Shown here: positions 2,365-26,703 of the stretch, one piece after another | Layout of the letters: each line of letters opens with the position of its first letter | How positions within the stretch are numbered: position 1 is the first letter of the stretch | Source: Trypanosoma brucei | Lineage: Eukaryota | Length of the DNA stretch: 64,000 nucleotides | Direction: 5' to 3' | Assembly: GCA_000002445.1 (NCBI GenBank) | Contig: CH464491.1 | Coordinates: 2,976,001-3,040,000, forward strand | Notes under the pieces: generated by a model | Told to the model about the DNA's origin: nothing | Seen by the model: only the letters and a program-made list of their open reading frames with translations | Database searches by the model: none | Position numbers and translations under genes: made by a program

Positions 2365-3321
2365 ATGGCTGTCGCTTACGAAGGACAACTGACGGGTCAC
2401 CGTGGCTGGGTTACATCCCTCGCCTGCCCACAAACGCCTGAAACCGCAACGAAGGTGGTATCCACATCCCGGGACAAGACCCTTCTTTCATGGGGCCCTA
2501 ACCCCGACCGGCACAGCAGTGAGTGCAGCTATGGCCTTCCCGACAGGCGTCTGGAGGGGCACAGCGCATTTGTGTCTGACGTTGCCCTTTCCAACAACGG
2601 GAATTTCGCTGTGTCTGCGTCATGGGACCATTCCCTGCGCTTGTGGAACCTGCAGAACGGACAATGCCAATACAAGTTTCTTGGCCACACAAAGGACGTA
2701 CTCTCCGTGGCCTTCTCTCCCGACAACCGACAGATTGTCTCCGGTGGTCGTGACAACGCTCTGCGCGTATGGAATGTCAAGGGCGAATGCATGCACACTC
2801 TGAGCCGCGGTGCTCACACCGACTGGGTGAGTTGTGTCCGCTTCTCCCCGTCTTTGGATGCCCCTGTCATCGTCTCTGGTGGTTGGGACAACCTGGTGAA
2901 GGTCTGGGACCTCGCTACCGGGCGACTTGTCACGGACCTTAAGGGACATACAAACTATGTCACATCTGTGACCGTTTCCCCTGACGGTTCCCTCTGTGCA
3001 TCTTCCGACAAGGACGGCGTCGCTCGTCTGTGGGACCTGACTAAGGGTGAGGCCCTTTCTGAGATGGCCGCTGGTGCGCCTATCAACCAAATCTGCTTCT
3101 CCCCCAACCGTTATTGGATGTGTGCGGCTACCGAAAAGGGCATCCGCATCTTTGACCTGGAGAACAAGGACATCATCGTCGAGCTTGCGCCGGAGCATCA
3201 GGGCAGCAAAAAGATTGTCCCGGAGTGCGTTTCCATCGCGTGGTCTGCGGATGGTAGCACCCTGTACTCTGGGTACACGGACAATGTCATCCGTGTCTGG
3301 GGTGTATCGGAGAACGCGTGA
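2365..3321 (+). CDS. RACK1: RACK1 / receptor for activated C kinase (WD40 Gbeta-like), tandem copy 1
   Basis: 318-aa seven-WD40 protein with GH...WD repeats throughout. N-terminus MAVAYEGQLTGHRGWVTSLACP and overall layout match trypanosomatid RACK1/TRACK/LACK. Confidence 0.93.
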   Translation: MAVAYEGQLTGHRGWVTSLACPQTPETATKVVSTSRDKTLLSWGPNPDRHSSECSYGLPDRRLEGHSAFVSDVALSNNGNFAVSASWDHSLRLWNLQNGQCQYKFLGHTKDVLSVAFSPDNRQIVSGGRDNALRVWNVKGECMHTLSRGAHTDWVSCVRFSPSLDAPVIVSGGWDNLVKVWDLATGRLVTDLKGHTNYVTSVTVSPDGSLCASSDKDGVARLWDLTKGEALSEMAAGAPINQICFSPNRYWMCAATEKGIRIFDLENKDIIVELAPEHQGSKKIVPECVSIAWSADGSTLYSGYTDNVIRVWGVSENA

Positions 3322-3669: not shown

Positions 3670-4626
3670 ATGGCTGTCGCTTACGAAGGACAACTGACGG
3701 GTCACCGTGGCTGGGTTACATCCCTCGCCTGCCCACAAACGCCTGAAACCGCAACGAAGGTGGTATCCACATCCCGGGACAAGACCCTTCTTTCATGGGG
3801 CCCTAACCCCGACCGGCACAGCAGTGAGTGCAGCTATGGCCTTCCCGACAGGCGTCTGGAGGGGCACAGCGCATTTGTGTCTGACGTTGCCCTTTCCAAC
3901 AACGGGAATTTCGCTGTGTCTGCGTCATGGGACCATTCCCTGCGCTTGTGGAACCTGCAGAACGGACAATGCCAATACAAGTTTCTTGGCCACACAAAGG
4001 ACGTACTCTCCGTGGCCTTCTCTCCCGACAACCGACAGATTGTCTCCGGTGGTCGTGACAACGCTCTGCGCGTATGGAATGTCAAGGGCGAATGCATGCA
4101 CACTCTGAGCCGCGGTGCTCACACCGACTGGGTGAGTTGTGTCCGCTTCTCCCCGTCTTTGGATGCCCCTGTCATCGTCTCTGGTGGTTGGGACAACCTG
4201 GTGAAGGTCTGGGACCTCGCTACCGGGCGACTTGTCACGGACCTTAAGGGACATACAAACTATGTCACATCTGTGACCGTTTCCCCTGACGGTTCCCTCT
4301 GTGCATCTTCCGACAAGGACGGCGTCGCTCGTCTGTGGGACCTGACTAAGGGTGAGGCCCTTTCTGAGATGGCCGCTGGTGCGCCTATCAACCAAATCTG
4401 CTTCTCCCCCAACCGTTATTGGATGTGTGCGGCTACCGAAAAGGGCATCCGCATCTTTGACCTGGAGAACAAGGACATCATCGTCGAGCTTGCGCCGGAG
4501 CATCAGGGCAGCAAGAAGATTGTCCCGGAGTGCGTTTCCATCGCGTGGTCTGCGGATGGTAGCACCCTGTACTCTGGGTACACGGACAATGTCATCCGTG
4601 TCTGGGGTGTATCGGAGAACGCGTGA
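3670..4626 (+). CDS. RACK1: RACK1 / receptor for activated C kinase, tandem copy 2
   Basis: Identical 318-aa product to copy 1, with flanking UTR sequence duplicated. The two repeat units differ at a few nucleotides only, outside the sense frame. Confidence 0.93.
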   Translation: MAVAYEGQLTGHRGWVTSLACPQTPETATKVVSTSRDKTLLSWGPNPDRHSSECSYGLPDRRLEGHSAFVSDVALSNNGNFAVSASWDHSLRLWNLQNGQCQYKFLGHTKDVLSVAFSPDNRQIVSGGRDNALRVWNVKGECMHTLSRGAHTDWVSCVRFSPSLDAPVIVSGGWDNLVKVWDLATGRLVTDLKGHTNYVTSVTVSPDGSLCASSDKDGVARLWDLTKGEALSEMAAGAPINQICFSPNRYWMCAATEKGIRIFDLENKDIIVELAPEHQGSKKIVPECVSIAWSADGSTLYSGYTDNVIRVWGVSENA

Positions 4627-7801: not shown

Positions 7802-8620
7802 ATGCAAACGTCGCCGGTCCGTCTGGGGGCGCTCATCCGGTACGTATCGTTTCGGCACGCCCCTAAGTTCCGACAGCCACGCCCCGAGGAAGTTATCGGC
7901 CTACCGGTCAAGGAAACGCCGCCTCACTGCGTTCCTGCCTTTGTCCTTCCCGACTTTATCAACGAGGCGGAGGAGCGCGCACTCTTGGCGCTTACGGAGC
8001 CGTGGTTCTCGCGACTTCCGTGCAACGAGGGGCATATGGACGCACTGATACACCATTACAAGGAATTTTATCGATCCTACAAGGGGCTGATGGAGGGTGA
8101 GGGGGCGTGTGGGAGTTGTGAAGACGGATGCCGACATGTGCGTAGGGCTCTCGAGAGGTGTTGGAGCGCGGCAAGTGGATATGTTCCCGCCACGCCATTG
8201 GATGACAGAGTGCATTTCCTGCGGTTGAGCGAATGTGGGTTCATAAGGGCCCATGCCGATGACACCCGCAACTCAAGCGGCATCATTGCCGGGCTGTGCC
8301 TTGGCTCCGCAAGGGTGATGACGCTAACGCACCCCGACCACGCGGGGCAGCGAGTGGAACTCATGCTTGCTCCCCGTGCGTTTTACGTGCTTATGGGGGC
8401 GGCGAGATACAAATGGGAGCACAGCGTTGACTGGATAAGGGATGACGATGAGCACATCGAACGAGTTCGTGGCAGGGTGCCACCGGGCGAGAGATCACTA
8501 GTATTTGACGGAAAGGAAACGGAGTTTAGGCGAGGAGAGCGAACAGCTATTATTTTTCGAGGAGTTTCGCCCCTGGAGTTACTCAAACACAAGACGTTGG
8601 AAAGAAAGGGCCACACATGA
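7802..8620 (+). CDS. AlkB-like 2OG-Fe(II) dioxygenase
   Basis: 272-aa ORF. RAHADD supplies an HxD iron ligand, with downstream His residues (LTHPDH, WEHSV). LMGAARYKWEHSV resembles the AlkB-family G.aRy.W.H motif. Confidence 0.55.
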   Translation: MQTSPVRLGALIRYVSFRHAPKFRQPRPEEVIGLPVKETPPHCVPAFVLPDFINEAEERALLALTEPWFSRLPCNEGHMDALIHHYKEFYRSYKGLMEGEGACGSCEDGCRHVRRALERCWSAASGYVPATPLDDRVHFLRLSECGFIRAHADDTRNSSGIIAGLCLGSARVMTLTHPDHAGQRVELMLAPRAFYVLMGAARYKWEHSVDWIRDDDEHIERVRGRVPPGERSLVFDGKETEFRRGERTAIIFRGVSPLELLKHKTLERKGHT

Positions 8621-8879: not shown

Positions 8880-11760
8880 CTTTTTTTGGGGGGGAGCTTG
8901 CGAAAGGAATGGTCGATCTTTTCATATTTTTTATCGTATCAATGTTATTTTTTATCATTCTTCGTCTAGTCCTACTTCTCATGTGGTTAGACAAGTTATC
9001 GTTAGTAATTTGTTGGAAAAGGTGTAAGGTTTTTAAGTGTTATGACAGAATATGAGGAGAAAGAGCGGAAAACTAGTCTAGCAGCGCTTAGGAGGTTTGT
9101 GAAACATTGTGGTCCCACGCGATTTACATTCATTACCCGCATACCGTTGAGTAGAAATACAAATCAGGTAAACGGAACTTTACTACTGGAAAATGGAGAT
9201 CTGACTGTATGCGCTCAAGATATGAAAGCAAATATCGCGGATATAAGAGAGGATATAGCGTCTTTTAGTGTCCCTCAGCATCAAGATTTTATAAGAGCTT
9301 TTGAAGAAGCAAAAAATATGCTCAAAAATGAATTGGCAGCATTACAAGAACATAAATCAATATTAATGGTGCAATACGAAATGGCTCGTCCATAGTTGGA
9401 AGACGAACATTTAAGGATTTAACAAGCGGCAGTGAACCACTCAGCAGAAATGCAAGATGTTATACAAAATATGAAAAATCAAATGAACCGGATGCAGGTT
9501 GAAAACAATCAAATACTCAACTAATACGGTATGTTGCAAGGGATGTTAAACCAAAAGGAAACTGAAATACAGTATTGGAAATCTATGGTAAACTCACACG
9601 GGTCAACGAACAAAAAGGAGGAAGTGGACAGCTCATCTATGAAAAAGAAAGTCTATGATTGGAAAAGAGAAGAAAATGAAAAAAAAAAATTGTCACCATG
9701 TAATTCCTTGGATGATATTTTACGAAAGAACAGATGAATACACAACTCCAGGATAGGTTGGGTATTTTTCGGCAGTGCCGACGAAGAGTTGCAGGCGGAG
9801 AGGATAAAAACGAGGAGAGAAAATACACCTTCGAAGGATTCGTGGATTACGTGATGGAGACGTCTCCAGTACACATGTCGGCAGCATTTGAGGAAGTGTG
9901 CCCAATGAAAGTAAGACATGAAAGTTACTACTATAAGACTTGGAATATGTTCGTCAAACGGGTTCATACCATACCAGACGTGGGCCTTGCGGAGGCTTTA
10001 TTCCAACTGAGAAAAAAAAAAAATATATATATATATATACGGAACTGCGTATCCTACAAACGGCATCGATGTTTCCTCGAGTCAAAATCCAAGATATTCG
10101 TAACGGCCCAGAGTCATCACAAAATTCAAAAGACCAATTCTGGCAACTGGGGGAGAAACTAAATAAGGTAAGAGCTCCTTCCCCGGAAAAAGCCAAATGC
10201 TATGTGGCCGCATTGGACATTACAGTACGACATGTTATGTGAAGGAAACAGCGGTATGTAAATCAAAAAACGGGGTTCAACCCTCAGAGCAATAAATTGA
10301 GGGATCGTTAATGCCTTGGGGTCCAACCACATAAGAAAAAATTGAGTGGAAACATACCAAGAGAGAAGAAAGGAAAGAACACAAACACGCTTTACATCAA
10401 GGCGAAGAAATAAGGGCAGAAAGTTTGAAAAGGGTGAAAATAAAAGGATACTGGCTCAGATGGTCCGATCTCATCAGAAAAGAACTTCCTCCGTTAAAAA
10501 CCTCGGTAAACGGGGTAACGGTGATCCCGGCACCATCTCACGATCCGATCGTGGTGGCATTGGAAACAGAGGCCAACAGGATCGCCTTAAGTGCATGGAC
10601 AAAAACAACATGGGAGCAAAGGGTGTCCATACTACGGAGACTTTGCGAGTTTGCGGAAAAGAACAACATAGATTCGAGAAGGGAACGTCCCTTTATTCGT
10701 CCTAAGTTTACAATTGGCAAAAAGCAGCGCCGTCCAGTATAAAAGGACGTTATTAAGTTTATTGGCCGCTGTAAGAACACCGGCGCAGATGTTTCTGGCA
10801 TGCCTACAAAAATCAGCGACCAAGGTGCTGATAAAGCAGGCTAGCCCCATGGAGAGATGGGAACTCGACTAGATAAGCGATATGATGACTACGAATCGGG
10901 ATCGAGTGGCGTTGCGCCTGGCGCGGATTACGGCAAGTTGATGGGTAGAAATTGCCCTCCATCAAAAAGAAAATTTTATACCGCGTCCCACCGACAGAGA
11001 GGCTTCTCATACTAGATTGGGGAGCCCTTCCGAAAACGTTCAAGATCAACCTAAACATGGCGGCACGATACGTAGTAATAGGAGGAACAGACGCAAAAAT
11101 GGTTCGGGAACTAACGACAACATTGGAGGAAAACGAAAAAATTACCAACCTGTCCACAAAAGATTTGGAAAAAATACTCCGTCCCTATGGAATGACAGCA
11201 CACTCCATAAAAAGAGGGGCACTAGCCCATGCACCGACAGTGGTCTTCGAGCACGACCTCGACCCGCGTTTTTTAACCCAACTGGGAAAAACAGCGGATC
11301 CTTTGGAATTTCCACGCAGCACGGCAAGATATCTCGGGCATTGTGTAGCACTAATAAACAAATCAGAGCAATTGACTCAGCACGTGCAGAGGAGTTATAG
11401 AGATGGACTTCGGCCCGATGGGCGCTACCAACTGCATGTGGAGAAAGAGATCAAACGCTATTTCAGGGACATAGCATTCTGAGACGCACCCATCACACGA
11501 GGGTGGCTACGGTGGAAGAAAACAAAATACCACTACGAAAAATATGCGTCAACACATTATCCTTGCACCGAATCAAAAACCGAATGAATAGCAAGGCGAA
11601 ACATCGTTTCGAGGAGGCGCGGGAGATCATGAGACAACCCACAAACCTGCAGGAAAGTGAAAGAGGATCTCAGCTAACAGTTTCTACCAAGGATGCCAGA
11701 ATCATGAAGAACGCAGGCATCGTACAAACGGTATCGGCAGCAACCCCCTTGGTTTGAGGT
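8880..11760 (+). mobile_element. Degenerate, 3'-truncated DIRS/VIPER-like tyrosine-recombinase retroelement remnant (AT-rich island)
   Basis: Sharp shift to A-rich composition. ORFs in order: a charged coiled-coil gag-like ORF (9042-9395 and neighbours), a basic ORF (10346-10705), then a tyrosine-recombinase-like ORF split over two frames (10425-10742 and 10952-11482). No RT/RNaseH follows. Boundaries are approximate. Confidence 0.45.
10425..11482 (+). pseudogene. Tyrosine recombinase (phage-integrase superfamily) ORF, frameshifted
   Basis: C-terminal ORF has HSIKRGALAHA (box II H-x-x-R/K-R-G-A), then ARYLGH and downstream Tyr candidates (..QRSYRDG). The N-terminal part sits in a different frame (10425-10742), so at least one frameshift is present. 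Confidence 0.4.
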
Positions 11761-14658
11761 CTGGGAAGAGCTGTCCTCTACAAAGTGCCTTTCCACCTCG
11801 TTTACTTCCCCAACTTTTGCGACATCGGGAATTTAAACAGCCAACTGCGACCCCCGATATTCCGATTTCGACCGAATGCGGGTATCCTTTGATTCCTAAA
11901 CCCTGTAGCTGGCGAGGCCAACCTCCTTGACGTAGTGCTTGGGTTATGACGAATGGTTGCTGCACTCCTTTGTCACGTTCAACTTCTCCGACTCTCCACA
12001 TGGAAACTTTCTAACAACCCCGCCACTGACAGGATGATTCCGCCTGCCGCATCCGTGTCAGCCGCTTCGCCCTATAGGGTTAACCTTGTCCACTGCGCTT
12101 TGCGGGGCTTGCTGGGAGGGTGTCTGGGAGTGTCATCGCTGACTCTCCATTTTGTAACCACTTCGGTTGTTTTTTTCCCCTCTCCTTGTATCCGCACTTG
12201 CTGCGCGGATGGTCAGCCACACGTTTGTTCACGCTGTGTGGCACAGGGACCGCGCCTCTCATTAGATGCTCCTCGAAGTTTCCAGTTGGCAAGCGTCCCG
12301 CAACAAGTCCCCTCCCGCGTGTCAGATTCGCCATCCTTGCAACGGCAATACTTCCTATCTGACAGACTTTTCTCGCGTCTGCCTGTTTTGTGTCTTCCTA
12401 TTCCTCCACGGGCTCCCTCCTTAACTTTCTTCGCCAGTTTTCAACCCTATTCCCCCTTTTCAAATGGGCACGGGGTAAGTCCTCTCTCGAAAATGCGCGG
12501 TTGCAAGCAAAGCGCCTTCGAGCCTCACCACCACAGGTTATGGGTTCGCTTTGCCCTCTCCTTTTCTCTGTCTAGGAGTTTGTGGCCTTCGATCCCACCC
12601 ATTGCCTCGAGGCGATGCGAGTAACTATTTTTCATATCCTCATCACCATCTGGGGTCCCGAACAGGGTAATTGAATATTGCCGCAGGGTGCTGACTTCCC
12701 ACTTTTAGCCAAATGCACACCCCCATTTCGCAATGTTCGCGCGGCGAACCTACAAAATTTTCCCTTTCTCTTAGTCGCGATCTACGCTTTAGCGCCGTTG
12801 TCAACCCCCCTTCCCCGAAGAAACCGTGGGCTCAGGTATGCACACGCTAAGATTGTTGTCTTTTGTCCTGTTTTCCATTCCCCGCAGCAAGGAGTTCACG
12901 TTTTCCAGCGTTTCGTCCGCCACTGCCCCAGGGGAAGATGCGGTTGGGCACCGTACAAACCACCAGATTGCAGTGTCCTAGCCCCAGTTTCAGTAAGTGG
13001 AAACGGTGTGCCTAATCCGCTGGTTGGCGCCACTAAGCTTTGCTTTTGCCGTTTCTGCCTTCGAAAGCACTCCTATTTACACTCATTCCCGCATTTGTTT
13101 GTTTGGGGGGGGGGGAGGGAAGGGAAGTGCCACGCAGTGTCACCAAGAGTTTTTCAAGGTTTTGGCATAGACATGAACAAAGATGGCATCCCTCACCCGT
13201 GGTGGGCGGTTCTTCTTTGCAACGAACCGAATACCGACGGGAAGGTCACTCGTGCGTGTATCTGCCTAGCCTTGAGCAAACCCCCATACACAGCACATTC
13301 CTCGTCACACCCCCGCTCAGTGGGACCGGCGCGCTAGCAGCGTCAGTCTCTTACGTGCTGCGCTGTCGAATTCTAACTCCCCCGCCCGCCTCCACACGAG
13401 TGTATCAGCCTGCAATGCGATATGCGTTGCCGCTGGCTTCGTACACGGTGAAAATAACTTCTCTGTGTGGGCATACGCGGCTTTCCCTATGAGCCGCCGA
13501 TGCAATTCAGCGGTGATGATGTGTGGGCGGCACGGTCTGCGCATGCTCATTTTCGTTGGAAAACACAGTCGCACGCCACGTGCTTCGTTTGGCGTCACTT
13601 ATTGGACGTGCCCGCCCAGCCACCGTCACTCTAAACTGCCCACAAACGGCGAAGATGTATTAGGTTGCCACGATTGCCGCTGCTTTCGCATCGTTTGAGA
13701 AAACGAACGCGCGTCCTGCGTCGCCGTCGAGGAACCAACCCCATCCTTTCCACCTACCGGCAAAAAGAGGCACGCCAGTAAAACGGAAAATGAGATGCCA
13801 AATTACAGAGGTGCGCTGCCTGGCGCGACGGAGTCGCTGGCATCAGTGCATGATAATCGTTTCTGACCGGCACGTGGGGTGCTTAGTAGACCCGCTCCGT
13901 CACTGCGGAAGCACCTCGAGAAAGATTTTGTAGCCACCTGGGGCTGCAAGTCCCCGTACTGACACACGTGAACAAAATCAGAGACCGCGGTTTGGCATCG
14001 CCGTGGCAAATCACGTTGTGCACATAGCATGACCTGTTACCTACGCCTCCATAGCGCTCGGGCCTGGCACCTTGGCTCGCGGAACTGCGACAAGCCCGGT
14101 CCCTCTGGAATCAAATTTCATTCAAGGATGACACCGCCGCTGGAGTGTGTGTAGAAACAAGCGTCCACATGCGGCCCGCGTGCACCCAACTTTACCCTCG
14201 ACACCTAGGAGATCGGAAACGCCAACGAGAACTAAATTAACGTTATTGGGGGAAAAAAAAACACAACCGATGTCGCGTCCTACGGTCCTGATGTGGGGAA
14301 GGAAAAGGGTGACCCCCTGACCGCGGAAAAAATCGTTGGTGAGTGTGCGGTGCATACTTAGGCGTAGCGTATCCCGTACACCTGCGGATGTTTCTCCATC
14401 ACTCGACGTTTGACGCGTTAAAAGTAAAGACAAAACAGTCATACCTTTGGGACGAAAGTTAGGTGCGCTTAAGAAAAAAAAGGGGGGAGGGGCGACCGTG
14501 AACCCTTATCGTTGAAAGAACGAAAGACGCATGAATCGGCTGGGCAAAGATTTGTAGGAGTGTGCCACTGTTATCAATGCCCCTCAGGGGTTCGAGCATC
14601 ACTTGTCAAATCGGTCTGAACAGCGCGAGGCCGGCAAAATTTTGGTTGCCGCCACGCG

Positions 14659-15016
14659 TCGGAGAGGGGTGGGGAGTATGTGGCGCTAGTACCCGCCGTC
14701 AGCATCGCGTGGGCTTATTTTCTTCTGGGTCTTCTTCTGAGCACTTACCCTGTATGAAAGGCTGGAGTGGCAGAAAAGACGTGTCCTTGATTTATGCGTA
14801 CCACACCTGCCTCTTACATTTTCTGTTGTTGCATACGTGTGTGCGGGAAGACGTGGTGACTACTCCGGTCTTCTCGCCGAGCACCTCATGTGCCTTGCTC
14901 GAGTGCTGAGTCTACGCGGCGCGACGGGTGGGCAGTAGGGGGGGGGGCTTGTACATAGAAAAAAAAAACTAGAGCCACCGGATGCTCTTTGTGCGACCCT
15001 GGTGAAAGTGAGAAAG
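14659..15016. repeat. 358-bp direct repeat copy A, in the 3' flank of the sialidase gene
   Basis: Identical by eye to 20249-20607, from cggagaggggtggggagtatgtggcgctag through ggtgaaagtgagaaag. Contains G10 and A10 homopolymers. Confidence 0.9.
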
Positions 15017-15165: not shown

Positions 15166-17211
15166 TCAAAAAGTGACAACAAAGATCATAGCAGCAAGCG
15201 CCACATATACGTGCGTTGCGTTATCAATTTGCCCGTTGCTGTGACCCTCCTGTGGTTCATCAACAGCAACTAGAGGTGCCTTTGACGGGCATCTAGGCCA
15301 GTACGTTCGCATGAACATCACTTGGACTTCGGCAAGGGTCAACTCCCTTTTGAAAAGAACAGCACTCTTCACCAGTAGTTTTCCATTGGGAGTAGCTTTC
15401 TTCTCTCCATATCCTCCAATATAGAAATGCATAACATCTCGCACTCGCCTAACAGTCTTGATACCGCTTCCCGTCCTCGAGAAGGCGGCACCATCGATAT
15501 TAACAGTGAACAAACCATTGTACATGGTTATCGTAACTTGGTGAGTCTCGTTGTGGATGGAGGATCCAAATGTAGGCACATGCCGGCCCCCAAACGTTAC
15601 GTACCATTTGTCATCCGATGTGTACGACACTTCAAGACACTCGTCGACACTTCCCTCGCTGATGACAACGCCCACAACCGGGATTTTTTCACTCACTCGG
15701 TCAGGCACCTCCACAGTCACCCCAAGTGTAAATTCATAATTTGCAAAGTTGTAAAGCTGAGCCCCCGTGTGGTTGCTCACAGTCCATGTGGCACCCCGAT
15801 TAGGGCCACTAAATAATATACCATTCAATGTTTTCTTAGCCCCAACAGCTTTGATGCTCACGCTGTTATATGTGTCCTTCCACTGATCACCATCTAAATC
15901 ATTCAAAAAAAGCCCAGCGGGTGCATCATCAACACAGTTTACGCGGTCGGTGGCTCCTCTGGTTCCGGAACGGAGCACACTCTCGGTCCTCCATTTTTCC
16001 ACAACCGCTTTTATCTTTTCGAGTTCATGATCTAAATGCGCAACCTTGCCTATGTCATAGGGTACCGCGTTGCTTACCTCATCATGAAAGGTGCCAGTTT
16101 TTTTGTAGAAGTAAAGCAGTTTGCCGTTGCTGTACAGCAGTGTCCCTTCACCATCTATTCCACCTTCAAGAGTGACGTGACCAATATCAAAAAAATGTTC
16201 GCCATCAGATAGCCAAATATTGAGCCCATCCCCATATGAGTCAGTCGACGGTGCGCGCCGGGTGAAAATCAACAACCTTTTCCCTTCAATTGTGACAACA
16301 AGCAAGTTGTGTGATCCACCTTCGGCTGCACCACTGGCCCACACACGCGAGAACGTCCTCTTGGCTTCCGTCCATTCCCTTCCCATATTGATGGATTCAT
16401 AAACAGCCAAGTGACCGGTATACGAGCCGTTGCTCAACATAAGCCTCCCTCCCCATTCAAAGATGTTGCAATTCTCCTTGCATACATGAGCTTCTAGGGG
16501 TGTCGACTTCCAGTGGATACCGTCGTCCACGGAATAAATTATTGTGGGTACGTCTTCGCTATTCTCGTTCTTTAAACAAACGAGAAATACAAGTAAACCC
16601 CCTTCAGTGACGATTGCATCCCTTCTTCCTCGGAAAAACTTGTTCACTGGCCCCGCTTGAAGTCCAGTGGGGAAGACCCCCTTCAACGGCACCTGTTTGT
16701 TCCACTCTACACCAGCTGATTGCGAAAAAAAACCTCTCGACCTTACAACTTTCCCAGAAATTAGAAGGAGACTATCTTTGCACTCACTTATCGTTACCTT
16801 GCCTAAGCCATCGCCTTGCACATCATACCCGCTTGCAAGCACATACACATTGCTCCCTTTGGCAACTACTTCAAGTGGTATTGGATAGGAAGAATACTCC
16901 ATCTCCTTTCTTCCTTCAATTATGTTGTCCTTTTTCCATGTCCTCCCCCCATCTATGCTCGAAAGTGAAAACGTTCTTAGCCTTACTTCACCAGCCAGGT
17001 GATATCTGAATTCTCCGATTGCAACCAACACACCTTCAGCCTCGACGACGGAATGAATATGTACGGCATCAACGACGGAGAGCAAGAAACTGCCCTTTTC
17101 TTCCCCGTCGAAAAGATCAAATTCATAAACATCCGGTGTCTTAGCAATACTACGTGTCCAGCCGATGTTGCACAGGACAAGTAACAGTAAAATGAGTATT
17201 TGCATTCTCAT
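15166..17211 (-). CDS. Trans-sialidase / sialidase-family surface glycoprotein
   Basis: 681-aa ORF, the only convincing minus-strand gene. N-terminal signal peptide MRMQILILLLLVLC. Three Asp-box motifs S-x-D-x-G-x-T/E-W (SIDGGRTW, SVDDGIHW, SINMGREW). C-terminal lectin-like region and hydrophobic GPI-anchor-type tail (VALAAMIFVVTF). The FRIP-like motif is altered to FRYH. Confidence 0.85.
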   Translation of the reverse strand: MRMQILILLLLVLCNIGWTRSIAKTPDVYEFDLFDGEEKGSFLLSVVDAVHIHSVVEAEGVLVAIGEFRYHLAGEVRLRTFSLSSIDGGRTWKKDNIIEGRKEMEYSSYPIPLEVVAKGSNVYVLASGYDVQGDGLGKVTISECKDSLLLISGKVVRSRGFFSQSAGVEWNKQVPLKGVFPTGLQAGPVNKFFRGRRDAIVTEGGLLVFLVCLKNENSEDVPTIIYSVDDGIHWKSTPLEAHVCKENCNIFEWGGRLMLSNGSYTGHLAVYESINMGREWTEAKRTFSRVWASGAAEGGSHNLLVVTIEGKRLLIFTRRAPSTDSYGDGLNIWLSDGEHFFDIGHVTLEGGIDGEGTLLYSNGKLLYFYKKTGTFHDEVSNAVPYDIGKVAHLDHELEKIKAVVEKWRTESVLRSGTRGATDRVNCVDDAPAGLFLNDLDGDQWKDTYNSVSIKAVGAKKTLNGILFSGPNRGATWTVSNHTGAQLYNFANYEFTLGVTVEVPDRVSEKIPVVGVVISEGSVDECLEVSYTSDDKWYVTFGGRHVPTFGSSIHNETHQVTITMYNGLFTVNIDGAAFSRTGSGIKTVRRVRDVMHFYIGGYGEKKATPNGKLLVKSAVLFKRELTLAEVQVMFMRTYWPRCPSKAPLVAVDEPQEGHSNGQIDNATHVYVALAAMIFVVTF

Positions 17212-20200
17212 TGCGAAAAACTCTTAGGGTACGGAAATAGTCTCCCTGCAGATGTGCGCGGTGTGTGCTTGATCGTTGTGAGGGCACCCTGAGTACTTTG
17301 GCGGTGGTACTCTTCAACTGGCTGCGTGCGGGTAGTGTTTTACAGAAAGGGGACAAATTACCTAACTTATGTATATAGCCGAAAAAAAGGGGTGACAACA
17401 CAGCACTTACAAACGGTGACATCATAAATATTAGGTACGAATGCTTATGTAATATGTAGCGGTGCCCTCAAATACTGAAGCGATCAAGGAACCAAAGTTG
17501 GTTTTGCACCACATCGGTGAGAGGTCCCCGATACGTCATGCGAGCCCCTAGAAGACTGCATTAACAGTGACAGGTCAATGCACTAAGATATCCTGAATCA
17601 CCGGCGGTGTATAGCTTGGCAAAAACTTCTCGCTTCCACTATTAGTTGCTGCAAAATTTTGCACGGCACTTGAAAAATATGTGGTATAAAAGCAAAGAAA
17701 AAGTGTTCGAGCCAAAACGCATTGCACCGAAACACTGTCTTCTCCCTCACCCCAACCCTGCTACGTTAACAGGTCACCAAAGTTCGTCACCGAACAAGGA
17801 CAAGATGTTCATTATTAGGAAGCAACTAATCCTTATGCACCTCGAGTTGCAGAAACTATTTCTTTTTTTGGCACCCGAATAACCCAGTGTATTACAACTC
17901 TTTTTTTTAAAAAAATGAAGTAGTAATAGCCTTTTCTCCATTAGTTTTATTCGTCCATATGGCGAAATTGAACCTGTCACTTGCATATAGCCAATCTTTC
18001 TTCACCCATCGTCGGCGTGCGTTTTCACATTTACTGCCCACTTGTGTGTAAAGACGGACGCACGAAACAATGGTTTGCAGGACAACGAGGGAAATCAAGC
18101 CATACCATAGCCGCCTACTTTCTAAACCATCTCGTATCTGTTTGCACATTCAAGGGGAATGGTTATTTCCCACTGGCTGCTACAGTCAGTGAATCGTAAT
18201 AAAGACGCTACACGGGTATTGAAAGCACAGGCGAAAATACGTAGGACAACATCTAATCGACACAATCTTCGCGGCAATTATAGTCTTTTCCCTACAATGG
18301 GAAACGCACTCCGCATGGTGACCCGCGTACAAACGCATGGATCTGCGTTTGTGCATGTTTGTTAAAAAAAAAACAACAAACAAACTATGTTAGCCCATCA
18401 TTTCAAAGCATCCATTTGCCGTAAGAAAGGTAAGCCCAGACCGCGGTTTCCCCACAACTTACCGCCAACACGAAGCAGCCGCTCGCAGCCGCGCCCCAAC
18501 GCAAACGCATGGGACCTCTCGCCCGTTGGGGCGTGAGAGGTCCCCGTGAGTTTCGGTGGGCAGGCGGGGGTAACAACGTGAAAGCTCCCTCCGCCCATTT
18601 CTGGGCTATGATGAAATATTAGCTCCGCCACCCCTCCTGAAGCTTCCCTTCCGCATACCGGGCGTCGCTTGCTGCCACCGCGAGGAAATACGAATCACCG
18701 ACGACATATCGGCGGGTGTGGTGGGGGAAGCCAGGGGGTGGACAACTAAACAGAGTGGTATCCCAACAAAGCGCAGCTGGCCCCCCGCCGTCCGACGCCG
18801 TAGCTTGCGAGCAAGGGGGGACCGTTACGGAGATGAGGAATGCTGGTGGTTCTTTAGTTATCCCATACATACGGGACAGCGGGCCCAGCGTCATGAAAAC
18901 CCCTTTAAAACGCCTAAAGGGACGGAAGCAGCGACTGTTGGCCCCGAAGCACGCCCACAAGAGCATGGAGGTGCCTTGGAGGGCGCTCCGCAGACTGGCA
19001 TGCAATTTCTTTGTCCTTTTAGTCGTGTTAACCCCTCACCTTTTCCTGTGGAAGGCGTGTCGGCTGCTGATCTGAACGAAGCGGTGAATGACCACTGCCA
19101 CTCCCGGCGCTTGGACGAGCGGCCAATTAAGGGCATGACCTTCGCAAAGAAAGTTGGAGGGCCGGGGCGCTATATGGGAAAACCCCCCTCGACGACGTGA
19201 GGAAGCTGTCGCACACGATTGAATCTAGTTCCGTGAGTTTCCCATGAAGGTCCTTAATATGTTTTGATTTCGCTCCAGAAGCTTACTTCGCAACCTTTGA
19301 GTGATTGATGCGCTTTCGCAAAGATTGCTCCACTTTCACCTGTTAACATCCTCGCTCTTTGAATTTCAAGGGTCACAATCATTAGGTTTCGAGGAATCAC
19401 TCAAAAAAACCTCTACCAAGCCCGGAAAATTCCCCTTCCAGGTGCTGTCAGAGGAAGTGCTGCTTCCGAGATGCGTGGTCCTTTGTTCGACCCCCTCCCG
19501 TCCCTCGAGAGGGTGTCGTCCACTCCATCTTTGGAGGAATCGGATAACGGCGCCCCCGTCCTTTACAGCGGAAGAGTTCCTCCTCCCAACGAAAGTTCTG
19601 CCCTAGCACCCAATTTACTGGCTAACGACTGGGAATTTGCCGTTCCGTGTTGGTATTGAGTACTCCCTCCACTTTAACCCTTCTTGATCGCCATGGCTGT
19701 GCGTCAGCTTTGTTTCGACCGCTTTGCAAAAAAAGAAAAAAAAATGCCATCCCCTCCCGAGCCGTCCTCCGTGCTCCTTCGCCGAGGAAAAGCGTATTTT
19801 ATCTGCCGGGGCCGGGAGCGCCTCTAGGGGAAGGAAAATAGCGTAAACCCCCTCGCCAGCGCGGTGGTAGTTGGTGGTGGCACTAGCTCAAACAGGTGCG
19901 GAGCTCGCACAAAACTTGTTGTAGGTTTTTTTTTCGCGAGGATGGGCATCGTCTGGCAAAACCGAGAGGTGGCGAGCGCCGTTGCTATTGCCCCCAAAAC
20001 TGGGAGACTTCAGTCAGCGGTGTAGCGATTAAGGATGCGACGCGTACGGTTGTCGCCGCCGCTCCTCCGGTTCCCAGGTTCCCTCTTTCCGAAAAAAAAT
20101 TTGTTCAGTAAGGCAATCCCACTGGCAATTCAGACCTGCCGTCTCTTTGTTTCCTACAGTGAACCTTCGTTATTATTATTATTATTATCACAATAGTTGT

Positions 20201-20248
20201 ATGTGTGAGGTTATCCGGAGTGCGCGTGACTCAGCCGAGCGTATGGGC

Positions 20249-20607
20249 TTCGGAGAGGGGTGGGGAGTATGTGGCGCTAGTACCCGCCGTCAGCATCGCG
20301 TGGGCTTATTTTCTTCTGGGTCTTCTTCTGAGCACTTACCCTGTATGAAAGGCTGGAGTGGCAGAAAAGACGTGTCCTTGATTTATGCGTACCACACCTG
20401 CCTCTTACATTTTCTGTTGTTGCATACGTGTGTGCGGGAAGACGTGGTGACTACTCCGGTCTTCTCGCCGAGCACCTCATGTGCCTTGCTCGAGTGCTGA
20501 GTCTACGCGGCGCGACGGGTGGGCAGTAGGGGGGGGGGCTTGTACATAGAAAAAAAAAACTAGAGCCACCGGATGCTCTTTGTGCGACCCTGGTGAAAGT
20601 GAGAAAG
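20249..20607. repeat. 358-bp direct repeat copy B, about 3 kb upstream of the sialidase gene
   Basis: Identical to 14659-15016. The flanks diverge immediately outside the repeat. Confidence 0.9.
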
Positions 20608-23600
20608 TTTCCAACGGTCTATTCTCGGGTTACCTCTTCTGGATTTTTACCGAAGTAGTCCCGCTGTCTTTACATGTGCGTAGCGACGCTGGTTGCCGCT
20701 GCATGTTTTGTCTTCCGTCTTAAGGTTGCGGTGGCCCAAAAGTCTACAAGCTGTTTGGAGGCTACTGTGGCGCACGGCGTCTGTTTTGTGGCCCTGTCGA
20801 ATGTTGCTTTTTGTCATTTGTGTTGCGTGCATGTCGTGAGCGGTGGATAAAGATATGCGACATTTACAGTATATGCTGGTTTCAACAGGTAATGCTGGTG
20901 CCTACTAGGTCGTAAAATGTCGTTACGGGACCTTGCAAATTTTGGACGGCGTCGAATAAGAGGAGTGCCGAATGCAAAGGTGTTGTTGCACTAACCTTAG
21001 GAATGCGAAAATTTCGTGTTGAAGTACCTGCTGCATTCGCATACAGGTAGAGAATTGGTTGATAATACTTTCCGGCCTCCGAGTTACGTCACTCTGTTAG
21101 AGAGCAGAGTTGATTTTTTATTAATGTGGCAATCGGGACGTATATGGTACATGTCAACCCCTTGTTGCCACGGTGAGGTCTGTGACAGGTGTGCGTGCTG
21201 TTTTCACGTTAGAATCGTGTAATAAGTGTTTACAAGGTTGGGAAATCTGACATTTCTTCCACCCAAATTCTCAAACGCGTTTCCTCGTATGGAATCTGCG
21301 TTGGTTTTTGGTTGATTTGTATACACAGGACTAATGTTTTTTGTACTCGACGGTGAGGGTTGCCGGAAATATCAGGATGGTGTTAATAACCCTCCCCCCA
21401 TCAAGGATAATAAGCAAAAGGAGGGAGGCGGGAGCGGGGGGCCATTTGCTGACTGTTTGGCCTTTGGCGCGGAGAGGGGCTTGACGAGGTACAATGTGTA
21501 GAAATTTGAAACTTTTGTTTTCTATCATTGGAATTATATATATTTCTCCGTGTAGTGAAATGATCCTTTGACGGAACTTGAAAGTTTTTTTAATGATCTC
21601 TCTCTCTGTTTTTGTGGAGTAGCAGCCGCTTTTCTTTCATTTACTTTGAATGTATTAATGTGCTTAGGGGAAAAGACGCTTACTCGTGTTTCCCTGCTGG
21701 TACACTCACCGACATTTTATTAGGACAAACACACCCGCGTATATAAACAAAACAATTTTGATGTTGCGGCGGTTGCTACTGAAACAATGGTGCCAGCCAA
21801 ACGGTGGATGACTGGGATAAAACTTCGATACCATTGTGGAACGAGTAGAGGGGAAATAAAGTTGGTGCTGCCCTAGCCGTCCCAGAACTCTTTAGATCCA
21901 CCCCGCTGGGACGACCCCATCTGTATACCATGGGATGTGATACCCAATTGGCACTCTTTTTGCATTTCCCCCCCTCCAGGATAGGAGCCGGGGGCGTTTA
22001 TCATGCTCTTTTAAAATTTCTGTTGATAGGTCTTCACCATTTTCAGAAAAGAAACAAAACAGTTCGTGCAGGCAGGGTTCCGTTCTAAGTCGCTTGGACT
22101 GGGAGCGGACTTGCTAAACGTGTCTGATTTCTGACACACTTGGTGTGATCGTCACCGTAAACACAGACGTCTTGGCGATGCTCCCCCCGTAACTGGCTGA
22201 TTGTAGGTTGCACACATTTTGCACGGCTTGTTACCACGGCGTGTGAGGGAGGTGCGATACTAACGACCATAGAAAAACAATCGAAAAAAAGGTCCGCCCC
22301 TTCGTTTGCCATGAGTGAGATTATGTGAGCTACCTCAGCGATCTTTCCTGGATTCAGTGAGAATGCGTATTGAATCCTATTGAGACCCTAGGGATGCACG
22401 GCGGTGTAATTGTCCATAGATGTCTATAACCCGTGGTACATTTCCAAGTAAGGTATGTTGAACGCATTCGTTTATCGGTCGTCCGTTTAGCAATGGCCAA
22501 GAAGGGTTAAAAACTCAAGACATTGGAGCCTTCGCGATTGTGGTGTGGGGAATAATGACGTATACATGTACGTAATGTTCGACGGCATTTGGCCCATCTC
22601 AAAATGGAGTTCGTTTTGGTGGGTTCGGACTAAACATGGACTTAATTTATTAAAGACGGTGAGCAGATGATTTGTTGCAATACGTAAATAAGTTTCCCCA
22701 AGGAGAAACCTGGCGAATATTTTTGGCATGTGATAGCATATTAACCGTCAAATGTAACACCCCATTCAGCGGCAAAACCTCTTTCTGAAACCTTGCTCGT
22801 TCGTTTTACTACCATCACGCTCATATCCGGCCCTTAAGGGGCTGAAAGGTTTGCAAGCGGCTCCGTCGATAATTTCCTATCGACGTGGTCTATTCGCATA
22901 GCATGTGTTGTATCATACTGTGTTCATTTTTGTCGATGGGTGCATGTGTGTGGGCGCTTCGTATTTTTTCCAATTTTACTTCATCCGAGCAACGAAGTCA
23001 AATAACACCATTCGAAGCAAACTATGGAACCCCTGCGTTGTCATCGCAATTTAAGAAGTAGACTATGCACGTGTAGACGCTAACACCCCCTTTTTTTTTT
23101 GGGGGGGGGGTGATTGATTGAAAATATTGTTGTTGACATTCCGATCATTACTTTGGTTACCGGAGTGGCAATCCCGCCTGAAAGCGTCGCGCAGGTAAGC
23201 CTTTTTATCATTATGTATGCGTTTCGGTATATATATATATTAGGCTCAGTACTTGCCGTCTCTGTTTTACTCGGGTTATGGCTGCTGCTACCCTACTGTT
23301 ACCTTGTTATTTGTCAGCGGTTGGGGTCTCTTCATTTTTACAGTGGAGGTGCTTGTGGATAAGAGGCACCTACGAACTAACGTAGGTTTGTACCAATCAC
23401 TCACTCATGCCATCTGCCATGAGGCGGGTGCTAGCGGAGATAGGCACGTCTTTCCCGTAGAGTAACCTGCGCTTTTTTGACTGCTGCGGTGTTTGGTTAG
23501 TGCAATCTACAAGTTTACGTGATTATTTGTGGTAGTTCCTTTTTTTTTTTTGAGGAAAGAAAAGTGTCTTTGCACCATAACGCTGTATCCAAGCTATTGC

Positions 23601-26300
23601 CGGCGCCATGGAAAGATATTTTCATATGTATATTACATACAACTTAATTTCCAGGGAATGCGCTCAGTGTATGAATGCTGTACACATTCTTTTTTTTTTT
23701 TGCATTCTTTGCCTGGAAACAGCGGTAAATGTGAACTGCCTGAAAGTGTGTCTAAGTTATTTTTTCCATTCACTTCACCGCCCAACTCGGTGTGGTTGAG
23801 TTTCCCATGGCCCAGTCGGTGTGATATCTGTTATTACATATTTTTTGCGACCATTTTGTTTCGCGTTTTCTACTTGAGCATGTTATGACCATGACCACCA
23901 AAAGGATCAGAATTACCATTTCCCACTGTGTTTTTCTCTACTAACGCCTCAACGCCAGTGCCGCGCCAGCAAACATCTTATATCATAGGGGAAGAATTGT
24001 TTGCAGTCTGAATCAATTGTGTTTGGGTAGTACTGGATCGTGCTCCTGTTTTCACATTTTGAGATGTTGCGAGTGAAAAGGATACCAAGGGACCGCTTAC
24101 CGGCTTCTACTTACTCGGCCGCGGCTGTACGCCTCTTGTAAGCATATTCTTAAGTTGCTCCCTTTTCATGTCTCGGGTGGGTGTTTAATGAAATCGGTTT
24201 ACAAACTACTAGATTGCACTTCAGATGATAGGAGGGAGCTGGAACTCAAGACAGTTGGAGTGCCCGTTTCTGGGTAGCAAGGGGGGGGGGGGAAATTGAT
24301 GTTCTTTGTTCTAAGAAGTTGCTTTTGTATGCGGGATGGAGGTTCGACAAGGCTTCTGCTTTGCGGTAGAGGTTGCTGTTAGCACTGATTTCACTCGTAC
24401 TTGGGGGGAACCCTGCCATTAATAAGCAGTATGTTTGAGGGAGCAGCTCATCTTTCTTATTATTGTGCAGTGCCCCGTTCCACCTTTCTGCTGGGTCCGC
24501 GCAGTTCTCTCAGCAACGTGTGCGCGGATCTAATCCATAGATTCAAGGAACGAAGTCTTTTTCGACGGTCATAGCTGTTGAACTTCCGGCTCGGTTGGGT
24601 CATGAGCAGTGAATCGTGGTAGCGGTGCACCAGAGGTGTGGGTCTCTGTTACAATTTTAAAGGTTGCTATTGGTTTGCACGATCACATCAGAGTTGACAC
24701 AGCACTTGCACTCCTGCTGGGGTCCAGGGTGTATTGAGTGACTTGCACCTTCCTGGTGCCGTCGGTTACCGGTTCCTGCGAAAAACTTTTTGGCACGTGT
24801 TGACGAACCCCGCTGCTGGTGTGTGGTGTTCTGTGCAAACTTTTTTTTTTTGAGCAGCACTAATTTCCAGCCAGCTGAGGATCTTTTCTACAGCAAAGTG
24901 GGGAGGGCAGGGAGACCTCGTGCTGGGACTGATGAAAACGCGCTTTCTTAAAAACATGGTTAGTGTACCGCTCTCCTTGTTGTTCCGAAAGCGAGTATGT
25001 TTCGGAGTTGTCTTGCCTCCAGCAACATGATTTGCAGTGAATTTCAACTGCTAAAAACAATGTGAATGCCCAAGGCGTAACATGCTTGCTGTTCCGCCAA
25101 ATAAACTAGTGTGTGATTGTGCTAAAAGGAAATGCAAAAGGATTTGAAACCTTACGTTCAGATCTTAAAGAACTGTGAGACCCCTTTTTTTCTGGATGGC
25201 ACTCAATTACTTCCCTGGTTGGAGGAGTCACAGTTACAACCTGGCCAACTTACATGTCGTAGTACAAGCCCCCCTTTCAAGAAGGTAGCTCTGGGTTAAG
25301 CAGAAGCTGTTATGTGATGCCTGCTATTTATACCGCGGTTCTGACTCACTTCTTTTCGTGCTATCAACAGCGGTTTCTTTGCACTGGTCGACGACTAGTG
25401 TGATTTAACGGGAATTTGTTGTGGTAGGTAGCCGAAATTGGCTTCAGGTGCATCACGTAAAATTCCTCACCAGTTGTATTTTCGTCGGCACATCCTCGTC
25501 ATCGGAATCTGTTGTCGCACTACCTTGAGTGGATCCGTGACAGAGTGGGTAATTTCCGGGGCGTTGTTCTGGTGCTTACTAGAGTGGGCTCGTTGTTTTC
25601 AAGTCAAACATATCTTCAGGATAAGGGGCGCCAATAGGCACGTGGCTACCCCCTCCCCTAGTGAGAGGATTTGTCGCGCTTTTGGCGGGTGTATCCAGCC
25701 GTTTTTTTTTTGCTGAACCGCTACGGCTCGTGGGGCTTGGCATTATGCTGGTGCCGAGTGCCTATGCTTAACAGAAGAGTCGGCAATCGTTAAGTGTCCC
25801 CTGTGTTGCTGAAGGAGGGGTCTTCTGGTGAACCGGCTCCGTTTCGCTAAAGTTCCCTTAGTTTTCGGCGGCGGCGTTACGTGGTCAGAAATTGTTGTGA
25901 TTACTGCCAAGGCACTGCGGTAGTTGCTGTGTTAACACGCTCAGGGACTACTTAATCTTTTACTGAGCTGTGCGCTCTCGTGTTTGCACCGTTCTCCATG
26001 GGTTGCCTAACGGAACAGCACTGTGTGCGGCAAGTCGAAGGAAGTAATTAGCCATGCAGGTGAGAAGATGCCACCCACACCAAGTGGTGATGTTACTGGT
26101 TCCGTGGGTGGTTATATCGACTGAAGCAAACAAAAACATATGGTTATAGTATTGGTTTTCGCAACTGTCGCTTCAGCTGCGGCGGCTGACGAGGCCCACA
26201 GGCTGTGAAGCACTCGTCGGTGTCGACCCTTTTTATCTTTCTTGAGACCGCACTTGTCAAACATTTCATCTTGATACCCCTACTTGTAGGCAGCGCGGCG
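20608..26300. other. About 5.7 kb ORF-poor, non-repetitive region; candidate divergent strand-switch / transcription initiation region
   Basis: No ORF over 120 aa in any frame. Complex sequence with scattered G-rich and poly-T tracts. It lies between the minus-strand sialidase gene and the downstream + strand gene cluster that starts with the cullin gene. Confidence 0.4.
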
Positions 26301-26703
26301 CCTTTGTGGTTTGACATTTGGCACCACTAAACATGTGTGTTGTTGTCTCAGGGTTCGGTCCTCCGGCTACGTTTAACGGGGGTTATGTGAGAATGATAGG
26401 GGAGGGTTTCCGTTTTTTCGCCACCATCTGGGTGATGTGGGTGGTGGCGTTATCAACTGAAATACAGTTGCTGTTTGCGCGCGCTGGCGTCAGCAAGGGG
26501 GGATATCGTTATGGTCTTAGTACTTTTATTATTTTACTCGCACAAGTGTTTCTTGGTACGGAATGGAGTCGTACTCTTCGTATCAAGTTTCTTACGCTTT
26601 ACCATTGCTGCTTAAGTAAAGAAAAAAATAATCACCATTATGATCTGTATCTGTTTGTACCACGCTTCAGTGAAGGCTCAAGGTTATCTACGTAGTAATA
26701 CAC

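Follow-up and report, generated by a model that had tools for sequence, protein, structure and literature searches.

An A-rich island on Trypanosoma brucei chromosome 11 as a decayed, 3'-truncated copy of the retroelement VIPER

What is the A-rich island that interrupts a 64,000-nucleotide (nt) stretch of Trypanosoma brucei chromosome 11 (GenBank assembly GCA_000002445.1, contig CH464491.1, positions 2,976,001 to 3,040,000 of the forward strand)? In the following, this whole stretch is called the window, and positions are counted from its first letter. An earlier note, made from the sequence alone, had taken the island for the fossil of a DIRS/VIPER-like retroelement that carries a frameshifted tyrosine recombinase (YR), lacks a reverse transcriptase (RT)/RNase H (RH) module and extends from 8880 to 11760. 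The evidence presented here leaves us in little doubt that the island is an inert, 3'-truncated VIPER copy of the TbVIPER lineage, residing on chromosome 11 of the T. brucei group. It occupies about 9.0 to 11.8 kb on the plus strand and consists, in this order, of a gag-like pseudogene, a YR pseudogene and the overlapping start of a third open reading frame (ORF3).

The island is abrupt in the profiles of GC content, AT skew and A fraction over 9.0-11.8 kb, as had been described. Between 9001 and 11750, the GC content of the profile windows goes down to 0.35-0.49 and the AT skew up to +0.18 to +0.34, and in the profile window just past the element (11751-12250) the skew reverses to -0.25. The A fraction amounts to 0.38 in 9042-10292 and 0.33 in 10392-11482, compared to 0.24 for the whole window. 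Because an open VIPER copy of T. theileri is A-rich as well (A fraction 0.31-0.32, AT skew 0.20-0.27 in gag and YR), this composition is probably for the most part inherited from the VIPER coding strand, with an extra AT drift in the gag part. The A-rich extent of the island was correctly perceived, but its proposed end at 11760 was not, since homology runs to about 11802 and includes the start of ORF3.

The tyrosine-recombinase pseudogene

The YR pseudogene (ORF2) was delimited by tblastn and a repaired alignment to 10392-11482 on the plus strand; it has no start codon and ends with a stop at 11480-11482. With the T. theileri YR P0006 (319 amino acids, aa) as query, tblastn matched 10392-10685, 10678-11064 and 11006-11377 (E 5e-53 and 3e-50), and the T. 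cruzi Dm28c YR as query against the window gave an E value of 1.8e-43. That the recombinase is split across frames had been recognized, but it runs through three frames instead of two: frame 0 up to about 10680, then frame 1 until about 11000 and finally frame 2 as far as the stop. It contains two additional in-frame stops. Three-frame translation places the first of these, a TAG (WELD*), at 10870-10872 and the second, a TGA, at 10939-10941, precisely at the codon of the first catalytic arginine (Arg-I), converting the family motif TASRWGE to TAS*WVE. The two motifs on which the recombinase assignment had been founded are present at their reported positions. Box II, HSIKRGALAHA (11201-11233), keeps the catalytic His (11201-11203) and Arg-II (11213-11215), and ARYLGH (11324-11341), which corresponds to the family motif T.RY, keeps the candidate nucleophile Tyr (11330-11332). 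In the family alignment, the second histidine (His-II) of the motif L.KH is replaced by Thr (11291-11293) within GKTADP (11285-11302). Altogether, Lys, His, Arg-II and Tyr of the catalytic set are kept, while Arg-I and His-II are lost.

After repair of the frames, blastp aligned the window YR to P0006 with 62.9% identity over 299 aa (E 3e-120), to a T. grayi YR with 66% identity (E 5e-104), to T. vivax YRs with 42-49% identity (E 9e-57 to 2e-81) and to the 338-aa P0016 of T. cruzi Dm28c with 39% identity (E 8e-61). P0006 is flanked by a 421-aa gag-like ORF on one side and, on the other, by an ORF that weakly matches RVT_1. P0016 sits between a 446-aa ORF and an RT ORF, and its size equals the alignment length given for the T. 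cruzi Dm28c VIPER YR in Table 1 of the survey by Ribeiro et al. 2019 (PMC6681497). Since VIPER and TATE YRs are related and not reciprocally monophyletic (PMC6681497), and TATE is set apart here by that published survey, an origin from another tyrosine-recombinase element, be it TATE, DIRS1-like, Ngaro or Crypton, has to be considered. We give it next to no credence, as the best-matching YRs belong to T. theileri and T. cruzi elements of VIPER architecture, and as the survey retrieved this very locus with VIPER queries and reported no tblastn hits of TATE in any of the T. brucei-group genomes and none in T. cruzi either (PMC6681497).

In public databases, VIPER YR ORFs of T. grayi, T. theileri, T. 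cruzi and Leptomonas (P0002, P0003, P0004, P0006, P0009, P0011, P0023, P0030 and P0045) go by the names trans-sialidase, mitotic centromere-associated kinesin or retrotransposon hot spot protein. These names look like propagated mis-annotation.

The gag-like pseudogene and the remnant of ORF3

The gag-like pseudogene (ORF1), likewise delimited by tblastn and a repaired alignment, spans 9042-10295 on the plus strand and comprises a coiled-coil N-terminal half and a basic C-terminal part. It passes successively through frames 0, 2, 1 and 0, and three-frame translation revealed four in-frame stops, at 9393, 9420, 9522 and 9735. The T. theileri 421-aa gag-like protein as tblastn query matched 9051-9494, 9806-9973 and 10033-10292 (E 1e-15 and 2e-12), and the repaired translation of 418 aa is colinear with this VIPER protein over its full length (29% identity, E 2e-44). 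The proposed order of a gag-like gene followed by a recombinase was thereby retained, but the coiled-coil and the basic ORF, previously listed as separate, are the two halves of a single gag-like gene. The T. cruzi gag-like protein as tblastn query had no match in the window, and the T. theileri query was needed.

In the C-terminus of the gag-like translation, a remnant of a retroviral-type CCHC zinc knuckle (C-..-CGRIGHYSTTC, 10198-10235, plus strand) aligns with the T. theileri sequence CYRCGRIGHYSSTC. The stretch CGRIGHYSTTC (10203-10235) is kept, and the first two Cys codons lie 2 nt apart instead of the expected 6, which results in a frameshift. The CCHC box (CX2CX4HX4C), a feature of the VIPER gag-like protein that has been reported for copies of T. 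cruzi, T. theileri and Leptomonas pyrrhocoris, is recognizable in the window, though disrupted. As the gag-like (E 2e-44) and the YR translation (E 3e-120 to 8e-61) both align with VIPER proteins, these ORFs are more than chance.

Using T. grayi ORF3 N-terminal sequences, tblastn located, in frame 1 and at about 11425-11802 on the plus strand, the N-terminal part of ORF3 that precedes the RT domain (E 6e-24 and 2e-42). Its start overlaps the 3' end of the YR pseudogene, an arrangement as described for VIPER. About 125 codons are kept, with a stop at 11755-11757, and homology to T. grayi ORF3 stops at 11802, about 10 codons short of RRRFIAWP, the motif with which the RT domain opens in both T. 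grayi and T. theileri; T. theileri ORF3 was compared by eye. No RT/RNase H was detected in the 64-kb window by tblastn with the RT of T. grayi, T. theileri and T. cruzi, and an RT hidden Markov model, applied with filters off to all six-frame stop-to-stop fragments of the window, found nothing. The lack of the RT/RNase H module was thus confirmed, but the start of the ORF that carries it is retained. Of the order that characterizes VIPER, gag-like, YR and RT/RH with overlap, the window displays the gag-like part, the YR and the overlapping ORF3 start, and the RT/RH domains are absent from it.

In an intact VIPER, the CCHC Gag-like protein binds RNA and RT/RNase H makes the DNA copy. The split direct repeats of the element presumably give rise to a circular double-stranded intermediate, and the tyrosine recombinase integrates this circle without target-site duplication. 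The copy studied here is reduced to ORF1, ORF2 and those roughly 125 codons of ORF3.

Recombinase family, fold and weight of the VIPER assignment

A profile search collected 57 relatives in T. grayi, T. theileri, T. melophagium, T. vivax, T. congolense, T. cruzi, Leptomonas and environmental samples. The nearly invariant columns of this family are W166, T168-R171 (TASR), K202, H258, R262, K287, H288 and T298, which give an R-K-H-R-H constellation followed by a T..Y motif. A search of ten window ORFs against Pfam yielded no relevant match, and Phage_integrase (PF00589) is sub-threshold even in intact relatives, with 3 of 20 family-alignment sequences reaching E 0.0085-0.069, below the gathering score. 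The proposed test of recombinase similarity did not refute the retroelement interpretation: Pfam gave no significant match, but BLAST matches to VIPER recombinases are strong (E 3e-120 to 8e-61). When searched against PDB sequences, a shallow YR profile retrieved nothing and a deeper family profile only Cre (E 0.021), in an alignment that pairs the Arg of TASRW with the Arg of Cre NTLLRIAEIA.

The fold was tested on P0006, the intact T. theileri homologue, which shares 63% of its residues with the repaired YR of the window. In the AlphaFold2 model of P0006 (predicted local distance difference test score, pLDDT, 75.9) we found the two-domain YR fold, composed of an N-terminal helical core-binding domain and a C-terminal catalytic domain. 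Foldseek comparison of this model to the PDB gave 37 matches at E <= 1e-3, all of them tyrosine recombinases (Cre at 8.5e-8, XerA, Tn1549 Int), with lambda Int and P2 Int next (E 1.8e-3 to 6.4e-3). The root-mean-square deviation (rmsd) of the whole chain is high because of domain orientation; for the catalytic domain alone it is 3.9-4.5 Å against P2 Int. Intact family members share the two-domain fold and an R-K-H-R-H-Y constellation with Cre, XerA and phage integrases, whereas their sequence similarity to these enzymes is marginal and the window copy is devoid of Arg-I and His-II. Judged by its residues, the window YR is a family member by descent and is predicted not to be a working enzyme.

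Two observations weigh against the assignment of the island to VIPER. No Pfam family is significant for any window ORF, and the window did not reveal the split direct repeats by which a complete VIPER copy is defined. Terminal or split direct repeats and further copies were sought throughout the 64 kb and only short chance matches were obtained. In the complete layout, the split direct repeats comprise a 5' A1 and a 3' B1-A2-B2. Since the 3' end, which would carry B1-A2-B2, is gone, the missing repeats say little. The 5' edge lies somewhere within 8897-9042. An AT/T-rich leader at 8897-9041 (plus strand), bounded by a G-rich tract and the ATG of the gag-like gene, may represent the 5' untranslated end of the element. 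The drop in composition begins in this leader, which at the nucleotide level resembles none of the elements of T. theileri, T. grayi and T. cruzi and does not recur elsewhere in the window. At the 3' side, we set the limit of the element to about 11802, where homology ends. Scans for tRNAs, Rfam families and tandem repeats around the element were empty. The YR homology, the YR fold of the homologue and the CCHC knuckle of the gag-like part support the VIPER-group identity that had been proposed, and the frameshifts, the stops and the loss of Arg-I and His-II support the proposed fossil status.

Relation to the published record and to other VIPER elements

The group to which this element belongs had been considered poorly catalogued, which does not hold. 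Later papers credit the description of VIPER in T. brucei to Lorenzi et al. 2006 (PMC6681497, PMC6390901), and Pita et al. 2019 state that its copy number in this species is very low (PMC6390901). A tblastn survey of TREU927 with VIPER queries listed 36 YR, 58 RT/RH and 0 gag hits (PMC6681497 Additional file 1). Furthermore, Additional file 2 of the same study (Ribeiro et al. 2019, PMC6681497) catalogues Tbg972_11_3009734_3026114 as a VIPER copy degenerate in all three ORFs. The midpoint of this entry, 3,017,924, falls inside the 141-aa ORF P0001 of T. b. gambiense (3,017,785-3,018,210), the orthologue of window 11057-11482, and the surrounding locus (L001, FN554974.1 3007785-3028210) is 98% identical to the window element. 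The entry centres on this orthologue, and both the VIPER family and this copy are already known. Judging from their similar coordinates, two further entries, Tb927_11_v5.1_3036323_3052622 (TREU927) and Tb427_11_01_v4_2979871_2996251 (Lister 427), presumably denote the same locus (PMC6681497 Additional file 2).

Compared to the published listing of TbVIPER and its degenerate copies (PMC6681497), which shares with our element the species group, the chromosome 11 locus, the degenerated status and the low copy number, nothing of substance differs; what is added here is a description of the gag-like part, of the lesions, of the point of truncation and of the synteny around the copy. On its own the element is of little importance, as T. 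brucei harbours a few dozen dead VIPER copies and this one sits at a locus already surveyed. The gain consists in an exact anatomy for a copy whose 141-aa ORF is annotated in T. b. gambiense as 'hypothetical protein, unlikely', in a T. brucei gag-like ORF that becomes recognizable with a T. theileri query where the published survey had 0 gag hits, and in a reminder of how widely public databases give VIPER YR ORFs the wrong label 'trans-sialidase'.

Among characterized relatives, the T. theileri VIPER (locus L005) has the ORF order, the overlapping ORF2 and ORF3, the CCHC knuckle and the A-rich coding strand in common with the window copy. Its ORFs are open and it is potentially coding, whereas those of the window copy are broken and RT/RH is missing. 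The VIPER/SIRE element of T. cruzi (Vazquez 2000; Dm28c copies in PMC6681497) shares a homologous YR (39%, E 8e-61) and the same ORF order, but its gag-like protein is too diverged for a tblastn match to the window. T. cruzi copies possess split direct repeats and a SIRE derivative, neither of which was seen in the window copy, and the T. cruzi element is GC-rich (0.55-0.56), in contrast to a GC content of 0.40-0.49 for the window element.

Decay relative to T. b. gambiense

Over its first 21.5 kb, the window is 98.6-99.3% identical to chromosome 11 of T. b. gambiense DAL972 (FN554974.1, 3.008-3.028 Mb). Divergence between the two amounts to 2.2% in the element and 3.2% in its gag-like part, compared to 0.7-0.9% in flanking non-coding DNA and 0.24-0.73% in neighbouring genes. 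A segment of about 90 bp, 9770-9861, alone contains 15 differences, many of which are at CpG sites, with CG in the window and CA or TG in gambiense. In total, six in-frame stops and at least five frameshifts were counted, and all three ORFs are broken. The copy is thus predicted to be unable to encode a working protein or to transpose, because its ORFs are broken, Arg-I, His-II and the start codon of the YR are lost, and RT/RH and terminal repeats are missing.

Could the fragment nevertheless have been retained for a function, as a domesticated VIPER derivative, for example a gene or a transcription-termination or RNA-processing sequence at the end of a polycistron? It occupies the same position in the window and in T. 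b. gambiense, a transcription unit ends at this site, and the annotators of T. b. gambiense called a 141-aa ORF here, albeit as 'hypothetical protein, unlikely'. Moreover, domestication of VIPER has a precedent in other genera, with VIPER-derived domesticated genes reported in Leishmania (Viannia) and Crithidia (PMC5146736). Against this stand the six stops, the at least five frameshifts and the lost catalytic residues, the absence of any long intact ORF, a divergence two to three times faster than that of the flanking non-coding DNA, and a syntenic site without this sequence in T. vivax, T. cruzi and T. melophagium. Domestication is therefore very improbable in our estimation. The divergence of the element in excess of its flanks, together with the lesions, argues for neutral decay rather than domestication. 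As a decayed VIPER copy, the fossil would probably be transcribed passively as the tail of the plus-strand polycistron and would have no function of its own.

Genomic context and the site of truncation

The last conserved plus-strand gene of the transcription unit upstream of the element is an AlkB7-like 2OG-Fe(II) oxygenase gene at 7802-8620, identified by Pfam PF13532 and trypanosomatid orthologues. Downstream, 3.4 kb without convincing ORFs separate the end of the element from a trans-sialidase-like gene on the minus strand (15166-17211; Pfam BNR_3 4e-31, TS_C 2e-36). This gene is followed by 9.5 kb (17212-26703) in which no ORF larger than 160 aa, no tandem repeat and no tRNA or Rfam match was found, and plus-strand genes resume thereafter with a cullin gene at 26704-29160 and others.

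The loci compared at the AlkB7-like junction were window 7802-8620 and 9042-11802, L007:10001-12800, L008, L009, L010 and L012. The AlkB7-like gene of T. vivax, T. cruzi and T. melophagium is followed by a convergent junction, taken to be ancestral, with COX15 and Metallophos genes on the minus strand, and VIPER is absent from this junction in all three. An ordinary conserved gene at the syntenic site, the explanation that would have overturned the retroelement interpretation, was accordingly not encountered in these species, none of which has such a sequence there. Going by gene order, the window junction past the AlkB7-like gene is a synteny break.

This setting bears on how the element lost its 3' half. 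The truncation at about 11.8 kb could be a breakpoint of the rearrangement that broke synteny and put the minus-strand trans-sialidase-like gene beside the element, with the RT/RH half left at the other breakpoint, a scenario that would refine rather than replace the identification as a truncated VIPER copy. It is suggested by the contrast between the AlkB7-like gene followed by minus-strand COX15/Metallophos in the three species named above and the succession of a VIPER fragment, a trans-sialidase-like gene, 9.5 kb without an ORF larger than 160 aa and a plus-strand cullin with other genes in the window, and by the sharp change in composition where VIPER homology ends. The same picture is, however, expected from a simple internal deletion or from decay past recognition, and we regard the breakpoint scenario as possible but rather unlikely.

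In T. theileri, a VIPER fragment is situated 580 bp downstream of the AlkB7 orthologue in the same orientation. It encodes YR aa 1-247 (P0011) and RT aa 1-144, has no gag, and is followed by minus-strand IGP-lectin genes. Since this fragment is 91% identical to the intact P0006 and absent from T. melophagium, the T. theileri insertion is young and independent of the one in T. brucei. Both species consequently have a plus-oriented VIPER fragment past the same AlkB7-like gene, followed by a lineage-specific minus-strand surface-protein gene. Two independent occupations of one transcription-unit end could reflect targeting; survival where insertions are harmless is more likely. A broader proposal, that VIPER is targeted to, or survives only at, polycistron ends and that the T. 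brucei fragment marks the chromosome 11 synteny breakpoint that brought in the trans-sialidase-like gene, is speculative and in our view improbable. The site of the T. brucei fragment, where synteny breaks and a transcription unit ends, is shared by the independent T. theileri insertion and offers a modest lead on where VIPER persists.

The corresponding T. grayi site is not readable, as the contig with the AlkB7 orthologue stops 188 bp past the gene (L011:10329-10516); a contig break is what a repeated element at this site would cause. A T. congolense YR fragment, P0053, was considered as an orthologous insertion and rejected on account of its unrelated gene context. Likewise, a relation of the element to the T. 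brucei chromosome 11 region said to match the T. cruzi chromosome 1 centromere (PMC1868937) was unsupported, the syntenic junction of T. cruzi being without a VIPER/L1Tc domain.

Further features of the window

The trans-sialidase-like gene, together with about 3 kb, is flanked by a 361-bp direct repeat (14656-15016 and 20247-20607) whose copies are 99.7% identical and which is also present in T. b. gambiense. This repeat may be a scar left when the strand-discordant block was duplicated or inserted. Upstream of the AlkB7-like gene, the window contains two tandem 318-aa WD40 genes (2365-3321 and 3670-4626), for which one called copy is found in T. b. gambiense and five in T. vivax; the WD40 copy number differs between species.

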